Of a stretch of DNA of 25,956 bases, positions 2,918 to 13,568 are shown in pieces; position 1 is the first letter of the stretch; each line of letters starts with the position of its first letter. The notes below the pieces were generated by a model. The model made no database searches. It worked only from the letters and a program-made list of their open reading frames with translations, and had not been told where the DNA came from. The translations under genes and the position numbers were made by a program. The DNA is taken from the IMG/VR virus record IMGVR_UViG_2711768059_000012, positions 1-25,956 of that record. The stretch is one strand, 5' to 3'. Source of the DNA: a virus (Duplodnaviria; Heunggongvirae; Uroviricota; Caudoviricetes).

Positions 2918-3856
2918 TTATTGTATTGTTAAGATAATGCTGGCTATAATTTGAATATCTTCAATGGAACACTCAAAATCCTTACTCCCACCAGAAACAA
3001 GAATTTTGTTCTTAGGTAAACGAGTTAACTCTTTTAAAGATAACTCATTGTCAATTCCTACTAACCATTTTCCATCTCTAATTAGGTGAAATTCTTTATC
3101 ACATATGACATGTTTTTCTCCATTGCTTACAAACATCAAGCTGCTAGTTTCTTGCTTCGGAAGTAGACACCGATCCATGGATAAAAAACCTGACTCGACA
3201 AGCACGCCATTGACCAAATTGAACTTATTTAAAATTACAGTGTTTTCTTCTTGTGAACTATTTGGTGTTTCGATTCCTGTAACTAGCCAGGCGAGATCCG
3301 CTTTGGTTTCTAATGCGCATTTAATCACCCAATCCGCAGGGAAAGAATCTCGCATGTATCGTGTGGCTAATGTGCTTTTTGAAATACCAAGGTGGTCGGC
3401 TAAGGCTTGGCGGGTTTTAAACCCGTAAGCATTAACAATCCTCTCTATCGCGGCTTTTCCTCCGTTAGTAAGCTCAATATGATTCTCAATGCGGCGCTTA
3501 AAGGATGATTGATGAGCGTTGCTGTTAAACCCCTCATGTGGGACTGTTTCATCATGTTGTTCCACATAAGGGGGGAAACTTTCTTCTGCATTGTTAGAAC
3601 CAAAGGCCAGCCATTCTAGGGATGCGCCAGTTTCCATTGAACATATAACAACCCAATCAGCAGGGAAGGTATCGCGTGCATATCTATTAGCCATTGTGCT
3701 TTGTGAAATACCAAGATGCTTACAGAAGGCTTGGCGTGATTTGAAACCATAGGCCTTGAGTATCCTCTCAATGACTTTTTGCCCTCCACGATTCTGCATG
3801 ACCATAGCTTTCAGACTATCTTCAATATGGCGAAATGTGATTTTTTGAGTTGACAT
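2918..3856 (-). CDS. cI: CI-type immunity repressor (186 CI family) with tandemly duplicated N-terminal HTH domain
   Basis: 312-aa ORF divergent from the apl/cII operon. Two ~58-aa copies of IERI(L/V)(K/N)AYGFK(S/T)RQA...HLGIS(Q/K)ST(M/L)A(N/T)RY(A/M)RD(T/S)FPADWV..., at residues ~29-86 and ~137-194, then a C-terminal domain. The duplication is also visible at the DNA level. Confidence 0.8.
   Translation of the reverse strand: MSTQKITFRHIEDSLKAMVMQNRGGQKVIERILKAYGFKSRQAFCKHLGISQSTMANRYARDTFPADWVVICSMETGASLEWLAFGSNNAEESFPPYVEQHDETVPHEGFNSNAHQSSFKRRIENHIELTNGGKAAIERIVNAYGFKTRQALADHLGISKSTLATRYMRDSFPADWVIKCALETKADLAWLVTGIETPNSSQEENTVILNKFNLVNGVLVESGFLSMDRCLLPKQETSSLMFVSNGEKHVICDKEFHLIRDGKWLVGIDNELSLKELTRLPKNKILVSGGSKDFECSIEDIQIIASIILTIQ
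3275..3772 (-). repeat. Intragenic tandem duplication (two ~174-bp copies, 3599-3772 and 3275-3448) encoding the two HTH modules of the repressor
   Basis: Protein-level repeat seen directly. Shared DNA strings such as gaaataccaag and aaggcttggcg occur in both copies. Confidence 0.7.
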
Positions 3857-3943
3857 ATTCTTTATGTGAACCTATTCTCCGTTTTGTGATGTTTTGTCAC
3901 GATTAATACCGGCTCACCACAAGCCAATAGGAGATGTTGCATC
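3857..3943. promoter_or_regulatory. Divergent lysis-lysogeny switch region between cI (leftward) and apl/cII (rightward); candidate operator/promoter DNA
   Basis: 87-bp AT-rich intergenic region between divergent starts. Contains near-palindromic ttgtgatg...ttgtcacg motifs and an AGGAG RBS for the rightward gene. Exact promoters not resolved. Confidence 0.5.
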
Positions 3944-4165
3944 ATGACCCCTAACATTTCAATAACTCTGAATACGCCACACGTCACAATTGAGCGTTAT
4001 AGCGAACTTACTGGTCTTTCTATCGACACCATCAACGATATGCTGGCTGATGGTCGTATCCCTCGCCATCGCCTTCGGAAAGACAAGAAAAAAGAAAAGG
4101 TAATGATCAACCTTGCTGCTCTTACCGTTGATGCACTTACTGATTGCAATGTTGTATTCATCTAG
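3944..4165 (+). CDS. Small DNA-binding regulator/excisionase, Apl/Cox-like (putative)
   Basis: 73-aa basic ORF ([12 protein letters not shown]), first gene of the rightward operon opposite cI, AGGAG RBS 10 nt upstream. Position matches apl of 186 and cox of P2. The function is assigned from position, not from a recognised motif. Confidence 0.5.
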
Positions 4166-4197
4166 TTCCATTTTGGGATGCATCAGGAGTGTCGACT

Positions 4198-4707
4198 ATG
4201 TTTGATTACCAAGTTTCCAAACATCCACATTTTGATGAAGCCTGTCGTGCATTTGCATTGCGCCACAACCTGGTGCAACTGGCAGAACGTGCAGGCATGA
4301 ATGTGCAGATTCTGCGGAACAAGCTGAACCCAGCTCAACCTCATTTATTAACCGCACCAGAAATCTGGTTGCTTACCGATCTGACTGAAGATTCAACGCT
4401 AGTAGATGGTTTTCTGGCTCAGATTCACTGCCTGCCATGCGTACCGATTAATGAGGTGGCAAAAGAGAAACTGCCGCATTACGTCATGAGTGCAACTGCA
4501 GAGATAGGGCGTGTCGCGGCAGGTGCGGTTTCTGGCGATGTAAAAACCAGTGCAGGCCGTCGTGATGCGATCAGCAGCATTAACTCTGTTACACGACTGA
4601 TGGCGCTGGCTGCTGTTTCATTGCAGGCCCGTTTACAGGCTAATCCTGCGATGGCGAGTGCAGTTGATACCGTGACTGGCCTCGGTGCTTCATTCGGTTT
4701 GCTGTGA
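4198..4707 (+). CDS. cII: Phage regulatory protein CII (186 CII family)
   Basis: 169-aa product starting [24 protein letters not shown]..., very close to my recollection of 186 CII (MFDFQVSKHPHYDEACRAF...). GGAG RBS. The ATG at 4198 is preferred over the upstream track start at 4144. Confidence 0.8.
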
Positions 4708-4714
4708 GGTGCTT

Positions 4715-4915
4715 ATGCTGACGAAAGAACCATCATTTGCATCGCTGCTGGTAAAACAAAGTCCGGCAATGCACTACGGTCACGGCTGGATCATGGGTGA
4801 GGATGGTAAACGCTGGCATCCGTGCCGTTCACAAGATGAATTGCTGGCAGAACTATCTACGAAAAAACGGGGGAACAAATGGCTATTGAAGGCGCTGCGG
4901 CGACTGTTCCATTAA
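4715..4915 (+). CDS. Hypothetical early protein
   Basis: 66-aa ORF with GAGGT RBS 5 nt upstream of ATG 4715, co-directional in the early operon. No recognised motif. Confidence 0.45.
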   Translation: MLTKEPSFASLLVKQSPAMHYGHGWIMGEDGKRWHPCRSQDELLAELSTKKRGNKWLLKALRRLFH

Positions 4916-5220
4916 GACCCGGTGAACGCCTGAATGGACTTAATCATATTGCGGAGTTAAGGGCGAAAGTTTTTGGTTTGAATATTGAGTCAGAGCTTGA
5001 GCGGTTTATTAAAGATATGCGTGATCCTCGGGATATCAATAATGAACAAAATAAACGGGCACTGGCTGCCATATTCTTTATGGCAAAAATTCCAGCTGAA
5101 CGTCATAGCATCAGCATTAATGAGCTGACCACTGACGAAAAGCGGGAGTTGATTAAAGCAATGAATCATTTTCGTGCAGTGGTGAGCTTATTTCCCAGAC
5201 GGCTAACCATGCCGAATTAA
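4879..5220 (+). CDS. Hypothetical early protein
   Basis: 113-aa ORF in the early operon. Start uncertain: ATG 4879 overlaps the previous ORF by 37 nt. Confidence 0.5.
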   Translation: MAIEGAAATVPLRPGERLNGLNHIAELRAKVFGLNIESELERFIKDMRDPRDINNEQNKRALAAIFFMAKIPAERHSISINELTTDEKRELIKAMNHFRAVVSLFPRRLTMPN

Positions 5221-5287
5221 CCAACTAATGAAATTAATGGCGTAAACCCGCCGGGCATCCCTTTATCTAAATTCAGGAGAATTGCTT

Positions 5288-5521
5288 ATGCGTAATATTG
5301 AAACCCTCACGACCAAAACCGGACCGGATGATGCAGGTCTTAATCTTTTACTGACAGAGGCTCGTCTGGAAGAACGCCGGGCAAGGGCTGAAGCAATGGC
5401 TGCTCGCCTCGATAGCCTGGCGTGTCATATCACCTCCCGCCAGCTAAACCACGTCGAAGCGGCAGAACTGCTGCGTGTGACTGCTGAAGCAATCCAGAAC
5501 GAAGCGCAGGAGATCCACTGA
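5288..5521 (+). CDS. Hypothetical early protein (coiled-coil)
   Basis: 77-aa ORF, AGGAG RBS 8 nt upstream of ATG 5288. Its stop overlaps the next start (TGATG). Confidence 0.55.
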   Translation: MRNIETLTTKTGPDDAGLNLLLTEARLEERRARAEAMAARLDSLACHITSRQLNHVEAAELLRVTAEAIQNEAQEIH

Positions 5522-5748
5522 TGGCTGATGCAATGGATCTCGTACAGCAGCGCGTTGAAGAAGAACGCCAACGCCATATCCGTGCTGCCCGTGCCAAAAC
5601 GCCGGGCGTGTCCCGCGTGCTTTGCGTTGAGTGTGAAGCGCCAATTCCGCCAGCACGCCGCCGTGCCATTCCGGGTGTGCAGCTTTGCATTACCTGTCAG
5701 GAAATCGCAGAGCTGAAAGGCAAACATTACAACGGAGGTGCTGTATGA
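5521..5748 (+). CDS. TraR/DksA-family C4 zinc-finger protein
   Basis: 75-aa ORF with CVEC...(17 aa)...CITC four-cysteine motif typical of phage TraR-like proteins. Translationally coupled on both sides. Confidence 0.7.
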   Translation: MADAMDLVQQRVEEERQRHIRAARAKTPGVSRVLCVECEAPIPPARRRAIPGVQLCITCQEIAELKGKHYNGGAV

Positions 5749-6599
5749 GCACCATCCTGAAATGGGCAGGAAATAAAACCGCCATAATGTCCGAACTGAA
5801 AAAGTATCTTCCTGCTGGCCCGCGACTGGTTGAACCTTTCGCGGGTTCCTGTGCAGTGATGATGGAGACGGATTATCCCAGCTATCTTGTTGCGGATATT
5901 AATCCTGATTTAATCAACCTCTATAAAAAGGTTGCTGCTGATTGTGAGGCGTTTATATCTCGTGCCAGAGCTTTATTTGAGGAAGCAAACAGGGAGGTGG
6001 CTTATTACAACATAAGGCAGGAGTTTAATTACTCCACTGAAATTACTGATTTCATGAAAGCGGTATATTTCCTGTATCTCAATCGTCACGGTTACCGTGG
6101 TTTATGTCGCTATAACAAGAGCGGGCATTTCAACATTCCCTACGGTAATTATAAAAATCCGTATTTCCCTGAAAAAGAAATTCGCGCATTTGCAGAGAAA
6201 GCCCAGCGGGCAACGTTTATCTGCGCCAGCTTTGATGAAACGCTGGCGATGTTGAAGGTGGGGGATGTGGTGTATTGCGATCCGCCTTATGACGGTACGT
6301 TTTCCGGCTATCACACTGATGGTTTCACTGAAGATGATCAGTATCACCTGGCATCCATTCTTGAACATCGGTCATCAGAAGGACATCCGGTCATTGTTTC
6401 TAACAGTAACACGTCTTTGACCCGGTCCCTTTATCGTAATTTCACTCACCACTACATCAGGGCGAAACGCAGCATCGGCGTTGCAGCGGGGGAGGGAAAA
6501 TTTGCAACAGAGATGATTGCCACTAAATCTGCTAATTGGTTTAGTGCCGATTTTAGTAGGGGACGTGACTCTACTGTTATTTTCGGGGTGCAAGTGTGA
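5745..6599 (+). CDS. dam: DNA adenine methyltransferase (Dam-like, GATC-type N6-adenine MTase)
   Basis: Starts [23 protein letters not shown], has FAGSCAVM (SAM-binding) and CDPPYDGTF (DPPY catalytic motif). GGAGG RBS. ATGA overlap with the upstream gene. Confidence 0.85.
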
Positions 6600-7426
6600 A
6601 AGAAATGCACCACGGAATTCATCATTTCCATGGGACGCCTGTCTGGGGAAGTGCTGGCGACGTTCATCGTATTGCGGTGAGCGGAGCTGGCGCTTTCGTC
6701 TCCTATGTACGACCAGATCAGATTGCGGCGTCCATTCAGCACGCTCAGGTCGTCGGCATTGATAACGGCGCATTTTCTGCATGGGTGCGTGGGCTAAAAA
6801 TTAACTGGAGTGATTTTTATAAATGGCTCCTGAACTATTACCACCATCCTAAGGTCGCTTTTTTTGTCATTCCTGATGTTGTGGACGGAGGTGAACGTGA
6901 CAATGATGCCCTGATAAACGAAGTTCCGAAAATGTTCTACGGGAAGGCAACTCCCGTCTGGCATCTGCACGAGTCAATCGATCGGCTTATCGAGCTATGT
7001 CGTGAATGGCCTCGTGTCTGCTTTGGATCGTCTGGTGAATATGCGGCTATCAGAACTGCGCACTGGCATCGTCGTATGCAGGACGCTTTTGAAGCAATTT
7101 ATTGCCGACACAATTTCAAAACAGCTGTTCATGGTTTGCGCATGCTTGACGGTCGTGTGTTGGGAAATTACCCACTGGCGACTGCCGACAGTACAAATCT
7201 TGCCTGCAATGTCCCCAAATTTAATAGCAAATATCCTGAGCTGACGCGGGCTATTCAGGAGGCTGAGTATTCGCGCAATCTGACGGAAAAGGAGCTGAAA
7301 GCTGTCATTCTGAAAAACCGTTGCGCAATTTTAAAAGGTGCAATTGAAGCTGTTCGCCCACCTTCAGTTTCTGATTGGCTGTCGAATGGTTTGCAGCCTT
7401 CACAGCTCGAACTGGAGATTGCGTAA
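6596..7426 (+). CDS. Hypothetical protein, possibly a minimal TGT/DpdA-like (7-deazaguanine) transglycosylase (speculative)
   Basis: 276-aa ORF (GTG 6596 overlapping the dam stop, or ATG 6605). Motifs in the same order as in tRNA-guanine transglycosylases as I recall them: GTPVWGSAG (cf. TPAFMPVGT), [11 protein letters not shown] (cf. ILTDSGGFQV), FFVIPD (cf. MAFDE), FGSSGE (cf. GGLAVGE). No Zn-binding Cys cluster. The assignment rests on remembered motifs only. Confidence 0.55.
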
Positions 7427-9798
7427 TGAACTACAGCTATTCCTGGAATGCTGAGAAAAAAGCAATCAATCCTTACGTAGAGACAGAAGAGCAATCTTCA
7501 GTTTCTGCGCTTTCAAACCTGATCGCTCTGTACGCTGCCGATAACGAGCAGGAACAGCTGCGCCGCGAGGCACTGAGTGATCAGGTCTGGGAGCGTTATT
7601 TCTTTAATGAATCCCGTGATCCTGTCCAGCGCGAAATGGAGCAGGATAAGCTCATTAGTCGGGCAAAGCTGGCGCATGAGCAGCAGCGTTTTAATCCAGA
7701 TATGGTCATTCTGGCGGACGTCAATGCCCAGCCTTCCCATATCAGCAAGCCGCTGATGCAACGTATTGAATACTTCAGCAGCCTGGGCAGGCCAAAGGCT
7801 TATTCCCGCTATTTGCGTGAGACGATTAAGCCATGTCTGGAACGGCTGGAGCATGTACGCGACTGTCAGCTATCCACTTCTTTTCGCTTTATGGCAAGCC
7901 ATGAAGGGCTGGACGGCCTGCTGATCCTGCCTGAAATGAGTCAGGATCAGGTGAAACGCCTGTCCACCCTGGTAGCTGCGCATATGAGCATGTGCCTTGA
8001 TGCAGCTTGTGGCGATTTGTATGTCACCGATGACGTTAAGCCAGAAGAAATCCGCAAGACATGGGAAAAGGTGGCAGCGGAAACCCTGCGTCTGGATGTC
8101 ATCCCGCCTGCGTTTGAGCAACTCCGCCGGAAAAGAAACCGCCGTAAACCCGTGCCCTATGAACTCATTCCGGGTTCGCTGGCGCGTATGTTGTGCGCTG
8201 ACTGGTGGTACCGGAAATTATGGAAGATGCGTTGCGAATGGCGGGAAGAGCAGTTGCGTGCTGTCTGCCTGGTCAGCAAAAAAGCATCTCCCTATGTCAG
8301 CTATGAAGCCGTGATGCATAAACGTGAGCAGCGCCGTAAGTCGCTGGAGTTTTTTCGTTCTCATGAACTGGTGAACGAAGACGGCGACACGCTGGATATG
8401 GAAGACGTGGTAAACGCCAGCAGCAGCAACCCTGCGCATCGCCGCAATGAGATGATGGCCTGTGTTAAAGGCCTGGAGCTTATCGCGGAAATGCGCGGTG
8501 ACTGCGCCGTTTTCTACACCATCACCTGTCCGTCACGTTTCCATTCCACGCTAAATAATGGCAGGCCCAACCCAACTTGGACAAATGCGACGGTAAGACA
8601 AAGCAGTGATTATCTGGTCGGCATGTTTGCTGCATTTCGTAAGGCGATGCACAAAGCCGGATTGCGGTGGTATGGCGTGCGGGTGGCTGAGCCGCATCAT
8701 GACGGTACAGTTCACTGGCACCTGTTGTGTTTTATGCGCAAAAAAGACCGCCGCGCCATCACTGCATTACTGCGTAAGTTTGCCATCCGTGAAGACCGCG
8801 AGGAACTGGGCAATAACACTGGGCCGCGCTTTAAGTCTGAGTTGATTAACCCGCGCAAAGGTACGCCAACAAGCTACATCGCGAAATACATCAGTAAGAA
8901 CATTGACGGGCGTGGTCTGGCTGGCGAGATCAGCAAGGAAACGGGGAAATCCCTGCGTGATAATGCTGAATACGTTAATGCCTGGGCGTCTCTGCATCGT
9001 GTTCAGCAATTCCGCTTCTTTGGCATTCCGGGGCGTCAGGCTTACCGTGAACTGCGATTGCTGGCTGGTCAGGCGGCAAGGCAACAGGGGGACAAAAAAG
9101 CAGGTGCGCCGGTACTGGATAACCCGCGCCTTGATGCCATCCTGGCTGCTGCTGATGCTGGTTGTTTTGCCACCTACATCATGAAGCAGGGCGGCGTACT
9201 GGTTCCCCGCAAATATCACCTCATCAGAACCGCTTATGAAATCAACGAAGAGCCGACCGCCTATGGCGATCACGGCATTCGTATTTATGGCATCTGGTCA
9301 CCTATTGCAGAGGGCAAGATCTGCACTCATGCCGTGAAGTGGAAAATGGTTCGTAAGGCCGTTGATGTTCAGGAGGCGGCAGCCGACCAGGGCGCTTGCG
9401 CCCCTTGGACTCGTGGCAATAACTGTCCCCTTGCTGAAAATTTGAAACAACAAGGGAAAGACAAATCAGCTGATGGGGATACCAGAACGGATATCACCCG
9501 CATGGATGACAAGGAGTTGCACGATTACCTGCACAGTATGAGCAAAAAAGAGCGCCGGGAACTGGCTGCAAGGTTACGCCTGGTGAAACCGAAACGGCGT
9601 AAAGACTACAAACAGCGAATTACAGACCATCAGCGACAGCAGCTCGTCTATGAACTGAAGTCCAGAGGATTTGATGGCAGCGAGAAAGAGGTCGATTTAC
9701 TCCTTCGCGGCGGCAGTATTCCGTCAGGAGCAGGCCTGCGTATCTTCTATCGGAACCAGCGTTTGCAGGAAGATGATAAGTGGCGAAACCTGTATTAA
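7426..9798 (+). CDS. A: Rolling-circle replication initiator endonuclease (P2 gpA family)
   Basis: 790-aa product from ATG 7426 (overlaps the upstream stop as TAATG). HUH motif TVHWHLLCF and paired active-site tyrosines in [11 protein letters not shown]. Size matches P2 A. Confidence 0.9.
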
Positions 9799-9890
9799 TT
9801 ACGCGGGTTAACAATTCGTGCTCTTAATAATACCAGGCATATCAGGCTGATGAACGTAAAAAAACGTTTTACATCAGTAAGATTATTATA

Positions 9891-9910
9891 TACTGTAAAT
9901 ATAAACAGTG
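9891..9910. promoter_or_regulatory. LexA box (SOS operator) upstream of the small-ORF/dinI-like pair
   Basis: TACTGTAAATATAAACAGTG fits CTGT-N8-ACAG with an AT-rich spacer, about 45 bp upstream of the ORF starting at 9952 and overlapping AT-rich promoter-like sequence. Confidence 0.65.
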
Positions 9911-9951
9911 GTTATGCATACAGTATTGCTTGTGGTGTCATAGGAGGAAAG

Positions 9952-10140
9952 ATGCAGGACTATTTTTTGGAGTCTTTGAAGCTCCAGCGCATTGATTTTT
10001 TTCTTAAACTTGTAGCGGCTAGTGAGTGTAGTGATGAAGAGAAGGGGCTGGCTTTGCAGTGGGTTTCTGAACTGACAGATGAACTCATGGCAAAAATCAG
10101 AACTCACGAATACAACCGCTCAATGGATGTCATCAGCTGA
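9952..10140 (+). CDS. Small hypothetical protein; possible N-terminal part of a Tum-like SOS antirepressor
   Basis: 62-aa ORF with AGGAGG RBS 4 nt upstream, immediately downstream of the LexA box. Overlaps the upstream extension of the dinI-like reading frame. Confidence 0.45.
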   Translation: MQDYFLESLKLQRIDFFLKLVAASECSDEEKGLALQWVSELTDELMAKIRTHEYNRSMDVIS

Positions 10141-10150
10141 GGTGACTTTT

Positions 10151-10384
10151 ATGCGCATTGAAATAATGATCGATAAAGAGCAGAAGATTAGCCAGTCTAC
10201 CCTAGATGCCCTTGAATCCGAGCTTTACCGCAATCTGCGCCCCCTGTATCCCAAAACGGTAATTCGTATCCGCAAAGGTAGCTCTAACGGTGTGGAACTG
10301 ACCGGACTGCAACTGGACGAAGAAAGAAAACAAGTGCTGAAAATTATGCAGAAGGTGTGGGAAGACGACTGCTGGCTGCATTGA
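10151..10384 (+). CDS. dinI: DinI-family protein (DNA-damage-inducible protein I-like)
   Basis: 77-aa product MRIEIMIDKEQKISQSTLDALESELYRNLRPLYP...VWEDDCWLH resembles E. coli DinI (MRIEVTIAKT..., acidic C-terminus). GAGGTG RBS 6 nt upstream. Downstream of the LexA box. Confidence 0.75.
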   Translation: MRIEIMIDKEQKISQSTLDALESELYRNLRPLYPKTVIRIRKGSSNGVELTGLQLDEERKQVLKIMQKVWEDDCWLH

Positions 10385-10520
10385 TAGGTTTCGTTTGTAA
10401 TGAGTCATGTTTTTTGAGTCCGATAGTAGACAGCTAGAGGGATAAATGATTAATAGATAGATTAAACATAGTGATGGGCGTAAAATCGCGCGCATTTTAT
10501 TGGCAACGGATCTGAACTCA

Positions 10521-11414
10521 ATGGCGGATAAGACTCAATCAGTAAGTATTGTGTATCAAGGCAAAGCTCTCGACGATCATAAGATGGATATTCTTTCGTT
10601 TGCGAAAAGTTTGCAGGGGCTAGGTGAGGCTATCTACTCTGCAAATGAGATTGTAAACGGAGGGCGAGACATTGAAGTTAACGTTGACGCTGAATTGATA
10701 GCCGGTTCCTTTGGGTTTGATATTGAGGTTGTACAACATCTAGCTAATGCTAAAGATGTTGTACAAATTTTAGGTTTGTCAGCCATTCCTTTAGCCGTTG
10801 GCGGTGCTACAGTTTTAGAGGTTCTCAAGAAGCTTAACGGGCGTAAGATCGACATAGTCGAGAAAGCTAACGGTAGTGACAAAGTTAAGCTGAAAGTCGA
10901 TGGTGAAGAGATTGTTTGCTCTGAAGATGTCGAAAAAATCGTTAATGCCCCAGAGATTCGTAAGGCTGTTGACGCGTTTGTCAGACAGCCTCTGTTACAA
11001 GATGGTATCGACAATTTTGTGGTAAAAAAATCGCGCACCTCTAAGAAAGAAATCCTCAAAATTCATAAAGATGAGGCAGAAGAGTTTAAGTCGCCAAAAG
11101 TTCTCTTTGAAACCAAAGAAGAAGTTGACGAATTTGAAACAACCGTGACATTCGTTTCGGCGCATACTGACAAAAAAAGTGGCTGGCGTGTTGAGTTTGG
11201 CGGTGAAAAGCGCAATGTCAGAATGGAAGATAATGAGTTCATCAAGCTTGTTACTGGACCAGACGCCCCCAAAATTTTTGGCGAATTGTTTGCTGTGAAG
11301 ATGAAGAAAATTGTGAAAGATTCCGGTGGCCAGGTAGACGAAAAGTTATCGATCATCAAAGTGGGTCGACACTTTGCCGCCAAAGATAGAAAAATAAAAC
11401 CTGATGCGGATTAA
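10521..11414 (+). CDS. Hypothetical soluble protein, first gene of a three-gene accessory module
   Basis: 298-aa (ATG 10521; TTG 10500 also possible), Lys/Glu-rich, no recognised catalytic motif. Sits in a visibly AT-rich stretch. Stop is 2 nt before the next start. Confidence 0.6.
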   Translation: MADKTQSVSIVYQGKALDDHKMDILSFAKSLQGLGEAIYSANEIVNGGRDIEVNVDAELIAGSFGFDIEVVQHLANAKDVVQILGLSAIPLAVGGATVLEVLKKLNGRKIDIVEKANGSDKVKLKVDGEEIVCSEDVEKIVNAPEIRKAVDAFVRQPLLQDGIDNFVVKKSRTSKKEILKIHKDEAEEFKSPKVLFETKEEVDEFETTVTFVSAHTDKKSGWRVEFGGEKRNVRMEDNEFIKLVTGPDAPKIFGELFAVKMKKIVKDSGGQVDEKLSIIKVGRHFAAKDRKIKPDAD

Positions 11415-11416
11415 AA

Positions 11417-11680
11417 ATGTCTATAGATATTAGTGTGTTAGGATGGTTGGGGCTGCTTGTTGCAGCTCCAGCTATATTTATAGGTGCTAGAGTGGCTATA
11501 CGTAGCCTGCTCGATCGAGTTATTGTCGAAACAAAAGTTTCTATCACTTATACTGATGCAAACAAAAATGTCTATAAAACAAATATTTATATAAACAATG
11601 ATGATGAGTTAATAAAGCTCATCGATGATATAGCAGAGAAAAATAAGCGTGAGAGGAAGGAGTCAGCCTCTCATGCCTGA
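11417..11680 (+). CDS. Small membrane protein (one N-terminal TM helix), second gene of the module
   Basis: 87-aa. Hydrophobic VLGWLGLLVAAPAIFIGARVAI then a charged C-terminal tail. Coupled to both neighbours. Confidence 0.55.
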   Translation: MSIDISVLGWLGLLVAAPAIFIGARVAIRSLLDRVIVETKVSITYTDANKNVYKTNIYINNDDELIKLIDDIAEKNKRERKESASHA

Positions 11681-12089
11681 ACAAAAGAAAACAAGCGGTA
11701 AAGCAGTCGGTGTTACAGGTGGCGGCGGTGTAGGCCTTTTCCTAATAAAGCTGGCTAGCTTCATTACAGATCCAACATGGAAAGACCTTTACATTGCTTC
11801 AATACCGATGGTGTCAATTCTTTTAAGCGAAGTTTTTACTTTTGCATGGACGATTTATGCTGTTGATCCGCAAGAAATCAAACTGAAAAGGCGGTTGAAG
11901 GCTCTGAAGAAGCAAGCCGAAGCAGTTTTAAATGCACCATCGTCCCCTGTTTCTCCAGAAATGCGAGAGAAAGCGCAGGCTCGTTACGACGTGATCTGTG
12001 GAATTGAAATGGGAATTTACCCCCTCTCAATTGTAAATACGCTAGATGGAAAAGTATCCCCCACAGCGCAAACGCCGGACGTTAAATAG
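11673..12089 (+). CDS. Small membrane protein (two predicted TM helices, Gly-zipper), third gene of the module
   Basis: 138-aa from ATG 11673 (GAGGAAGGAG upstream; 8-nt overlap with previous gene). GVTGGGGVGLFLIKLASFI and IASIPMVSILLSEVFTFAWTIYAV hydrophobic segments, then a basic coiled region. Confidence 0.55.
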   Translation: MPEQKKTSGKAVGVTGGGGVGLFLIKLASFITDPTWKDLYIASIPMVSILLSEVFTFAWTIYAVDPQEIKLKRRLKALKKQAEAVLNAPSSPVSPEMREKAQARYDVICGIEMGIYPLSIVNTLDGKVSPTAQTPDVK

Positions 12090-12152
12090 CAGTTTCTACT
12101 TTGCATGACTATGCTGCATGAAATCGCATGATCGTTTGAGGATCGTTTTTGC

Positions 12153-12180
12153 AAAAGCCCGCCAGAACTGGCGGGCTTTT
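12153..12180. terminator. Perfect 13-bp inverted repeat hairpin (AAAAGCCCGCCAG-aa-CTGGCGGGCTTTT), likely bidirectional intrinsic terminator
   Basis: Read directly: the arms are exact reverse complements, with A-run and T-run flanks. Lies 64 nt after the module stop. Confidence 0.65.
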
Positions 12181-12225
12181 GCGTAGAGCATGCATCTGCA
12201 TGAAAACCACTACATAAAGCGGGCA

Positions 12226-12244
12226 GGCGTGGCGGGGATACGAG
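12226..12244. other. Candidate cos (cohesive-end) site
   Basis: GGCGTGGCGGGGATACGAG. The first 13 nt match the 186 cos 19-mer as I recall it (GGCGTGGCGGGGAAAGCAT; 15/19 overall), and the A-to-Q location matches where cos lies in P2/186. Confidence 0.4.
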
Positions 12245-12326
12245 TGCGCGCAATACGGTTCGATAAGAATTCACTTCGACTATGTTTTTAGATAATCTGG
12301 CAATAAAAGGATGAGGAGAATGGCAA

Positions 12327-13568
12327 ATGCAAAGAATAGTTTTTTACTCTTGGCAATCTGATTTAAATGGAAAATGTAATAGAAATTTAATTCAAGATGC
12401 TTTGGTTAGATCTCTAAAAGCAATAAAAAAGGATGAAACAGAAACATTGGAGCCAGTCTTGGATCGTGATACTAATGGTTTAAATGGCTCACCATCAATT
12501 AGCGAAAGCATTTTTAATAAAATATCACTTTCAGATGTTTTTGTTGCCGATGTTTCTATCATAAATGGAAGGTCTGAGGATAAGAAGACACCTAATCCAA
12601 ATGTTTTGATTGAATTAGGATATGCAGTATCCCAGCTAGGCTGGGATAGAGTAATCATGGTCCAGAATACATTTTATGGTTCTCCAGAAGAACTTCCTTT
12701 TGACTTAAGAGGACGGAGGGTAATTGCATATACTATGGACCCTGATAGTGATTCAAAACCTGAGGTAAGAAGCTTACTGCAAGGGCGACTTGAAACTGCA
12801 TTAAGGGAGTCCTTGAGTGATTCAAGCCAAGGAGCTATTTCTTCAGGTTTAAATGCACCAATATGGTGGGGGGAGTGGTACAAGGACAATCGCAGAAGTA
12901 ATTTTGGCAAATTATTTATTCGTGAAACATCGTCAAATGGTTTTCTTTTTGATTTAGTAGTTATGAATGGATCACATTCTGGGAGTATTACAGGAGAGGC
13001 GGTTTTTGTAGCTAGAGATTCAGCTTACGCTAGAATAAAAATACCTGGAAGTAATGAATTTGGCGAGTTGAGTTTTAGGCGCAGCATATTTGATGGTAAA
13101 CGATATATTAGGATAAGTGAGACCGTTAGTTGTCAATACTGGCGAGGTATGGGGGCCTTTTTTGATGGTGAGTTTCGTTGTGCAGAGGATCATTTGTTTT
13201 TATTTGGTTTTGCAAATGAAATGGAACTTCAGAGATTATACAACGTTATGGGGCAATATTACTTTGAACTGAAAAAAGTGATGGAGCAAATAGGTGAGCG
13301 CGATAATCTTGATACTTTTGTCGCAAAGGCTTATCAGGGAGGAGTTAGAGGACTTTATACCATTGCGGAAGGTATGGTGATGTTTGGTAGAGAGGGCGAG
13401 ATATGGGCTATTTATCTCAATGATGGTGAAATTCGTTATTTCACAAATGTACATAAATGGAAAAAAACTATTCCAAAAACTTTTGAACAGTGGCGAGAAC
13501 GATTTCCAGAGATTGAAATAAATTATGGAGGTGATATCTCGACACTTCCTACACAAGAAGATTTATAG
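12327..13568 (+). CDS. Two-domain protein: N-terminal TIR-like/nucleoside 2-deoxyribosyltransferase-like domain plus uncharacterised C-terminal domain; candidate anti-phage effector
   Basis: 413-aa. GAGGAG RBS 7 nt upstream. N-terminus RIVFYSWQSD (cf. TIR beta-A FISYSxxD) and NPNVLIELGYA (Glu96 in an E-[LI]-G-Y-A context as in the NDT/TIR-like superfamily). Very AT-rich. Followed by a hairpin terminator. Confidence 0.65.
   Translation: MQRIVFYSWQSDLNGKCNRNLIQDALVRSLKAIKKDETETLEPVLDRDTNGLNGSPSISESIFNKISLSDVFVADVSIINGRSEDKKTPNPNVLIELGYAVSQLGWDRVIMVQNTFYGSPEELPFDLRGRRVIAYTMDPDSDSKPEVRSLLQGRLETALRESLSDSSQGAISSGLNAPIWWGEWYKDNRRSNFGKLFIRETSSNGFLFDLVVMNGSHSGSITGEAVFVARDSAYARIKIPGSNEFGELSFRRSIFDGKRYIRISETVSCQYWRGMGAFFDGEFRCAEDHLFLFGFANEMELQRLYNVMGQYYFELKKVMEQIGERDNLDTFVAKAYQGGVRGLYTIAEGMVMFGREGEIWAIYLNDGEIRYFTNVHKWKKTIPKTFEQWRERFPEIEINYGGDISTLPTQEDL

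Follow-up and report, generated by a model that had tools for sequence, protein, structure and literature searches.

We analyzed a window of 25,956 nucleotides, the whole stretch from positions 1 to 25,956 of IMG/VR virus record IMGVR_UViG_2711768059_000012, and focused on a 276-amino-acid (276-aa) open reading frame (ORF) that lies between a DNA adenine methyltransferase gene (dam) and the replication gene A. The content of the window corresponds to the left two-thirds of a P2/186-like (Peduoviridae) Escherichia coli prophage. The ORF is part of a rightward early operon that encodes, in order, CII/CP76, DUF5347, DUF2732, a DksA/TraR zinc finger, Dam, the 276-aa protein, and the gene A protein. 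The genes and features at the locus are as follows.

5521 to 5748, + strand: DksA/TraR-type C4 zinc-finger gene (Pfam PF01258, 4.4e-11; phrog_54, 1.8e-30), whose stop overlaps the dam start as ATGA
5745 to 6599, + strand: dam, a D12-class N6-adenine DNA methyltransferase of 284 aa (PF02086, 9.9e-76; TIGR00571 "dam," 316.5 bits against a cutoff of 114.85; PADLOC orphan methyltransferase model, 4.5e-109)
6279 to 6290, + strand: DPPY catalytic motif IV of Dam (aa 179 to 182), read from the sequence
6596 to 7426, + strand: solo-DpdA-type gene with a tRNA-guanine transglycosylase (TGT) fold, 276 aa from the GTG at 6596 or 273 aa from the ATG at 6605
7426 to 9798, + strand: gene A, a P2-type replication initiator/nickase (PF05840, 6.6e-128; phrog_91, 2.2e-288)

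The original prediction for this locus, made from the letters and the ORF translations, held that the gene after dam overlaps the dam stop, and this is the case: the GTG start forms a GTGA overlap and is preceded by GGGG 7 nucleotides (nt) upstream. At the other end, the TAA stop and the gene A ATG share bases, reading TAATG (7424 to 7428). The NCBI entry for the identical protein has 273 aa, which fits the ATG at 6605, and the choice between the two starts is immaterial because residues 1 to 5 are disordered in the structural model. We found 4,313 homologues of the protein at an E value of ≤1e-3, which rules out a frame that is open by chance. The segment from 5500 to 7500 is 100% identical to E. 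coli chromosomes, including those of strains D2, B771, and APEC O78, and is present at ≥80% coverage in 102 of 5,426 complete E. coli genomes, where the PGAP label for the 276-aa gene is "hypothetical protein."

The 276-aa protein matched phrog_887, "queuine tRNA-ribosyltransferase," at 2.4e-96, and the same group takes in CAjan DpdA1 (8.2e-96) and MED16 DpdA (3e-70). When we aligned a 52-sequence profile of the family to CAjan DpdA1 with hhalign, the match had a probability of 98.8% (E value, 1.4e-16) over 160 columns at ∼19% identity. The AlphaFold2 model (pLDDT, 92.2; pTM, 0.90) consists of eight alternating strands and helices, a (β/α)8 barrel closest to tRNA/DNA guanine transglycosylases. 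The predicted TGT fold was found by both structure prediction and profile search. Foldseek against the PDB gave a weaker result, with arcTGT top-ranked, and 31 of the BFVD viral models matched at an E value of ≤1e-3, the named ones being nearly all phage "queuine tRNA-ribosyltransferase." For the neighborhoods of relatives, we collected 80 IMG/VR loci with an 8-sequence alignment and searched them by tblastn; CAjan DpdA1 matched in 41 of them. We attach almost no probability to the alternative that the protein is an unrelated TIM-barrel enzyme, such as an aldolase or a hydrolase, with a superficial likeness to TGT, since the hhalign match to CAjan, phrog_887, and the tblastn matches in related loci effectively refute it.

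Direct comparison by tblastn showed 75.7% identity to Salmonella phage SEN1 gp38 and SW9 gp39, both from P2/186-like phages, 61% identity to a protein of the Flyfo siphovirus Tbat1_6, and 54.7% identity to the DpdA of Pantoea phage MED16. The proteins of HK106 (38%), PEAT2, SE131, and 7-11 (34%) were 34 to 38% identical. SEN1, HK106, PEAT2, and 7-11 are entered as DpdA-only phages in Supplementary Data 1 of Hutinet 2019, and in the MED16 paper the viral homologues named as nearest to MED16 DpdA are SW9 gp39 and SEN1 gp38. The assignment to the phage DpdA type thus held up, with phrog_887 in common with CAjan DpdA1, the 98.8% hhalign match, and 76% identity to SEN1 gp38. These results place the 276-aa protein in the phage DpdA group as a minimal barrel of the TGT superfamily that lacks the Zn subdomain, and they support the earlier interpretation in substance. 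The possible discovery that it raised is not new, as both the family and its occurrence in a P2-like phage had been reported in 2019 and 2021. What is new is a currently unannotated member of the published solo-DpdA family.

The residues predicted to form the active site are encoded at the following positions, where bDpdA is the bacterial DpdA and Cap10 is a related protein of type IV cyclic oligonucleotide-based antiphage signaling system (CBASS) operons.

6761 to 6763, + strand: codon of D56, the predicted general acid/base, aligned by hhalign to CAjan D63, invariant in the 52 sequences, and by motif order the likely equivalent of bDpdA D95
6875 to 6877, + strand: codon of D94, the invariant Asp after strand 4 in the 52-sequence alignment and the predicted base-recognition Asp
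6962 to 6964, + strand: codon of H123, the invariant pocket His, aligned to CAjan H132 and, from motif order, probably equivalent to bDpdA H181
7130 to 7132, + strand: codon of H179, an invariant His 19 residues ahead of the nucleophile, aligned to CAjan H187
7187 to 7189, + strand: codon of D198, the predicted nucleophile, aligned to CAjan D206 and, judging by motif order, presumably equivalent to bDpdA D256 and Cap10 D248

The TGT-like motif order read at the outset, DNGAF (D56), IPD (D94), WH (H123), GSSG (G144), HGLR (H179), and ADS (D198), corresponds to active-site positions of CAjan DpdA1. The hhalign pairs (family/CAjan) are D56/D63, F60/F67, H123/H132, G144/G153, H179/H187, L181/F189, and D198/D206; Kot et al. 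assigned the CAjan active-site roles, with D63 as the general base and D206 as the nucleophile. The alignment is discrepant at one place, where CAjan D105 falls opposite D97 and not opposite the invariant D94, which lies three residues earlier in the same loop after strand 4. D56, D94, H123, H179, D198, and S199 are invariant in the 52 sequences, down to 27% identity, so that the nucleophile, the acid/base, and the base-recognition Asp are all conserved at the sequence level. The order D56, D94, H123, D198 matches D95, D130, H181, D256 of bDpdA, in which the D95A and D256A mutants are dead. The position of H179 suggests that it may correspond to H226 of Cap10, the hydrogen-bond partner of the Cap10 nucleophile.

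The predicted absence of a Zn-binding subdomain was confirmed. None of the five Cys residues of the 276-aa protein is in a CxCxxC motif, and no Cys is conserved in the family; E. coli Tgt carries CDCYTC at 302 to 307. CAjan DpdA1 likewise has no CxCxxC Zn motif, which shows that its absence is normal for this type of phage enzyme and neither special to the 276-aa gene nor a defining trait of a phage DpdA.

The gene is most like the solo phage DpdAs (group 3 of Hutinet 2019; cluster DpdA/TGT_1 of Simoliunas 2021), which include SEN1 gp38, SW9 gp39, MED16 gp38, and the proteins of HK106, PEAT2, and 7-11. It shares with them a length of ∼260 to 276 aa and the absence of both que genes and a Zn motif, and, like the SEN1 and SW9 genes, it belongs to a P2/186-like phage and immediately precedes gene A. 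Unlike in SW9, where a DUF5405 gene precedes it, the prophage gene is preceded and overlapped by dam. The DpdA1 proteins of Queuovirinae (CAjan and 9g), which are validated preQ0 (7-cyano-7-deazaguanine) DNA transglycosylases, resemble the 276-aa protein in PHROG assignment, hhalign score, and the absence of CxCxxC and of a Pfam match. However, DpdA1 is encoded with folE, queD, queE, queC, and yhhQ, whereas the 276-aa gene stands alone, and DpdA1 replaces 25 to 32% of G, whereas relatives of the 276-aa gene have 0.02 to 0.13% of G as dADG (2′-deoxy-7-amido-7-deazaguanosine).

Two other groups of DpdA-like proteins differ more. The bacterial DpdA of the Salmonella Montevideo Dpd restriction-modification (R-M) system (PDB 7UI4) has 413 aa, family-specific insertions, and a CXCX2CX22H structural Zn site and needs the DpdB ATPase, all of which are absent here. 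We rejected membership in the bacterial Dpd R-M group on the basis of length (276 versus 413 aa), the lack of a PADLOC match or Zn motif, and neighbors that are dksA-like, dam, and gene A. Cap10 (type IV CBASS; PDB 9NTN) acts on a protein-linked base together with a cGAS/DncV-like nucleotidyltransferase (CD-NTase) and the QueC-like Cap9 in a host defense operon. Neither a CD-NTase with an N-terminal Gly-rich tail nor a QueC-like Cap9 gene accompanies the 276-aa gene, which lies in a phage replication operon, and we rejected Cap10 membership as well. The Cap10 comparison does raise the alternative that the 276-aa protein is an active TGT-fold transglycosylase with a non-DNA substrate, either host tRNA or a Cap10-like protein-linked 7-deazaguanine, that manipulates translation or counters deazaguanine-based immunity. 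We regard this as distinctly improbable, since no CD-NTase or QueC partner is encoded nearby and the sequence similarity is to DNA enzymes.

The original prediction noted that no preQ0-synthesis genes are in the window, and our ORF scans agreed. None was found among the scanned ORFs, which encode Int, Old, CI, CII, DUF5347, DUF2732, the DksA-like protein, Dam, the gene A protein (gpA), PDC-S42, a TIR-domain protein, and P2 structural proteins over 26 kb of prophage. Within 8 kb of the homologue, none of the 80 related loci had a CAjan-like FolE, QueD, QueE, or QueC by tblastn, a search of limited sensitivity. The proposal that a DpdA here would have to use host queuosine precursors fits these absences and agrees with the published view of DpdA-only phages. 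Host precursors can suffice, as 9g DpdA expressed alone in E. coli inserted host preQ0 into plasmid DNA (Hutinet 2019).

A Vut_1/YhhQ-type transporter gene adjoins the homologue in 11 of the 80 loci, and in Tbat1_6 the neighbor of the solo-DpdA homologue matches PF02592 at 4.7e-10. The adjoining transporter provides an independent tie of the family to 7-deazaguanine salvage, and it suggests that, in phages without que genes, the transporter and the solo DpdA form a pair, an "import and insert" cassette of two genes. The importer is absent from this prophage. The transporter gene is short (∼150 to 160 aa) and was seen in loci L035, L041, L042, L043, L062, L065, L075, and L080 to L083 and, in Tbat1_6, in L002 (3525 to 4001).

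The Dam call was solid, as predicted: the protein matches PF02086, scores above the TIGR00571 cutoff, and carries the DPPY motif. Against the E. coli Dam equivalog model, the prophage Dam scored 286 bits, under the model's cutoff of 441. Membership in the dam subfamily makes GATC its probable specificity. It shares D12 class, DPPY, and an above-cutoff dam-subfamily score with the phage-encoded Dam proteins of P2-like and other temperate phages. The dam gene has 95% DNA identity to those of Klebsiella P2-like phages and differs from the Klebsiella version in the last ∼80 nt because the junction of a replacement cassette adjoins there.

6521 to 7500, no strand: 980-bp replacement cassette relative to Klebsiella phage 4LV2017, which spans the dpdA-like gene in full, flanked by the final ∼80 nt of dam and the initial ∼75 nt of gene A (blastn, megablast breakpoint)

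By blastn, the window is 95 to 98% identical to 4LV2017 over 3800 to 6520 and 7501 to 10200, and there is no match between these segments. At the cassette site, 4LV2017 has 195 bp (locus L006, 4522 to 4716), and its dam runs straight into gene A. Homology to 4LV2017 breaks off within the 3′ end of dam and, on the other side, within the 5′ end of gene A, so the exchange of the cassette took in the final ∼27 residues of Dam and the initial ∼25 of gpA as well. In SW9, the order is DUF5405, the DpdA-like gene, and gene A, with no Dam. We therefore rejected Dam and the DpdA-like protein as an obligate two-gene module, given that phages with Dam only (4LV2017) and with the DpdA-like gene only (SW9) both exist.

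The wider set of loci showed the same assortment. A gene A homologue lies just downstream in 24 of the 80 loci, all P2-like, and Dam lies directly upstream in 16 of the 80; in some of these lineages, Dam is 68 to 74% and the DpdA-like protein 70 to 84% identical to the proteins of the window. About half of the distinct P2-like lineages among the 80 loci are without Dam. At ∼0.8 kb, the DpdA-like gene is a cassette that assorts independently; its slot upstream of gene A is fixed, and Dam is often, though not obligatorily, its neighbor. A separate observation concerns protein P0011 (421 aa), found in one 36.6-kb Logan contig, which has a PF02086 N-terminal part and whose residues 193 to 421 are 100% identical to residues 48 to 276 of the DpdA-like protein. 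This is either a deletion that fused both genes or an assembly artifact.

A cassette that comes and goes could also be a silent one. According to this explanation, the enzyme is intact and contributes next to nothing in E. coli, being a hitchhiker that needs other hosts or an imported base, and the phage DNA contains N6-methyladenine (m6A) and otherwise canonical bases. The gene does behave as if dispensable, as it is absent from the otherwise 95 to 98% identical Klebsiella phage, and it is found in just 102 of the 5,426 complete E. coli genomes. The YhhQ-type importer with which some relatives pair the gene is missing from this prophage, and in wild-type E. coli, QueF drains preQ0. An example of a phage with a solo DpdA and unmodified DNA exists in mycobacteriophage Orion, whose host makes no preQ0 (Hutinet 2019). 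However, ∼550 cluster representatives all keep the same active-site residues, which speaks for selection on catalysis; the 9g enzyme by itself inserted host preQ0 in E. coli; and the tight translational coupling in the early operon has been kept across diverged P2-like lineages. We consider it unlikely that the cassette is silent.

We scanned 3800 to 10200 for promoters and terminators. The features at the head of the operon are as follows.

2918 to 3856, − strand: 186-type CI repressor gene of 312 aa (matches to the Phage_CI_repr helix-turn-helix [HTH] and CI C-terminal domains)
3850 to 3878, + strand: promoter-like site TTGACA-17-TATTCT at the head of the early operon, beside the divergent CI gene (a consensus match only)

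The site at 3850 to 3878 was the single + strand promoter-like site in the scanned region, where the total count of promoter-like sites was below the shuffle expectation and terminator-like sites were at chance level. The scan found no internal + strand promoter, which leaves the idea of the 276-aa gene as an independently expressed moron unsupported. Given the coupled stops and starts and the one promoter-like site near CI, we read these genes as a single translationally coupled early operon.

Taken together, we think it quite probable that the 276-aa gene is a solo phage DpdA, a (β/α)8 DNA-guanine transglycosylase that is cotranscribed and translationally coupled with dam and gene A in a CI-repressed early operon. 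The analysis establishes the gene structure, the fold, the family membership, the conserved active site, the lack of a Zn site and of que genes, and the cassette behavior; that the substrate is DNA, which base is used, and any gain against restriction are inferred. The mechanism that follows is by analogy to TGT, bDpdA, and DpdA1. In the lysogen, CI would repress the early operon, and upon induction or infection the enzyme would be expressed together with gene A, a timing that fits a postreplicative modification of phage DNA. The target G would be flipped out of duplex phage DNA, D198 would attack C1′ to yield a covalent intermediate between enzyme and DNA, and D56 would protonate the leaving guanine, with H179 probably positioning D198 as H226 does D248 in Cap10. 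A pocket of D94, H123, F60, L181, and the G144 loop may then bind a host 7-deazaguanine base, which would be preQ0 (made by FolE, QueD, QueE, and QueC) or possibly a 7-amido-7-deazaguanine (ADG) intermediate. Deprotonation of N9 of the incoming base by D56 would complete the exchange. Judging from relatives, we would expect low-level dADG or its preQ0 counterpart, dPreQ0, as the product, beside GATC m6A from Dam.

Measurements in relatives bear on this expectation. In the DNA of phage 7-11, dADG amounts to 50 per 1e6 nt, or ∼0.02% of G (Hutinet 2019); in MED16, whose DNA also contains m6A, it reaches 354 per 1e6 nt, or ∼0.13% of G. For a genome of ∼34 kb, we calculate from these levels ∼3 to 25 modified G per genome, which is too sparse for general restriction evasion. 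There is either a site-specific benefit, or the level is raised by high preQ0, a queF-poor host, or an imported base.

Several points weigh against the 276-aa gene being a solo DpdA that modifies phage DNA. Some concern the family assignment. The 276-aa protein had no match in Pfam or NCBIfam (E value of ≤1) or in PADLOC hidden Markov model (HMM) searches, and HMMs built from the single sequence and from the 52 sequences gave only chance matches (coat protein and GCN4 coiled coils) among PDB sequences. It also could not be placed with the bacterial tRNA-guanine transglycosylases (PF01702), as no Pfam or NCBIfam TGT model matched at that threshold and hhalign gave no significant match between the family profile and the single E. 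coli Tgt sequence. In a calibration, E. coli Tgt matched PF01702 at 2.8e-168 and CAjan DpdA1 had no Pfam match; since this validated enzyme escapes Pfam too, the negative HMM searches with the 276-aa protein are uninformative. The remaining points concern the modification. The dADG in 7-11 and MED16 is correlative, and base insertion by the solo clade is putative. The step from preQ0 to ADG would have to proceed without DpdC or QueC*, and the levels in relatives are just 0.02 to 0.13% of G. MED16 DNA is still cut by the tested enzymes with G in their sites, Orion DNA is unmodified, and the singleton DpdAs cluster on their own, and their function may have diverged (Hutinet 2019).

The proposal that Dam and the DpdA-like protein form a two-layer anti-restriction module stood only in part. 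The two genes are often adjacent, but the linkage was overstated, as they assort independently, the amounts of dADG in relatives are tiny, and protection from restriction is putative. A more speculative idea, to which we give a low but appreciable probability, is that the solo DpdAs of temperate P2-like phages are not bulk anti-restriction enzymes but place a few site-specific dADG marks, made from host preQ0 or ADG. These marks might serve as a specific signal against defense or in regulation, for instance where replication or packaging sites lie next to gene A. Alternatively, the enzymes may act on a non-DNA target, as Cap10 does.

Identification of the gene as a solo DpdA gives a functional name to a "hypothetical protein" of ∼100 complete E. 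coli genomes and shows that P2/186-like prophages repeatedly carry a solo-DpdA cassette at one fixed place, immediately upstream of gene A and often right after Dam. What is known of the family stays unchanged by this finding, and the scientific interest lies in what solo DpdAs do. An inducible E. coli prophage in a tractable, que-proficient host would be a convenient system for asking which base they use, where dADG comes from without DpdC, and whether so sparse a modification protects.

Other features of the window are as follows.

1 to 1032, − strand: integrase gene (scans of the window ORFs)
1105 to 2874, − strand: full-length Old (OLD-family ATPase-TOPRIM nuclease) defense gene (PADLOC Old model, 8.7e-234)
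9850 to 13568, + strand: low-GC (37 to 42%) cargo island between gene A and the portal gene

The Old gene between the integrase and CI genes has a GC content of 35%, versus ∼50 to 56% in the phage core. The CI repressor has two separate Phage_CI_repr HTH matches in addition to its C-terminal domain, suggestive of a duplication of the N-terminal DNA-binding domain, and the CI gene of Klebsiella phage 4LV2017 is similar in size (942 nt). The cargo island is followed by the P2 portal, terminase, scaffold, capsid, lysis, and baseplate genes. Within the island, we found a PDC-S42 candidate defense protein (10500 to 11414; 7.8e-44), a 146-aa unknown protein (11649 to 12089), and a 413-aa protein with a CAP12/Pycsar-type TIR domain (12327 to 13568; Pfam, 6.7e-6).

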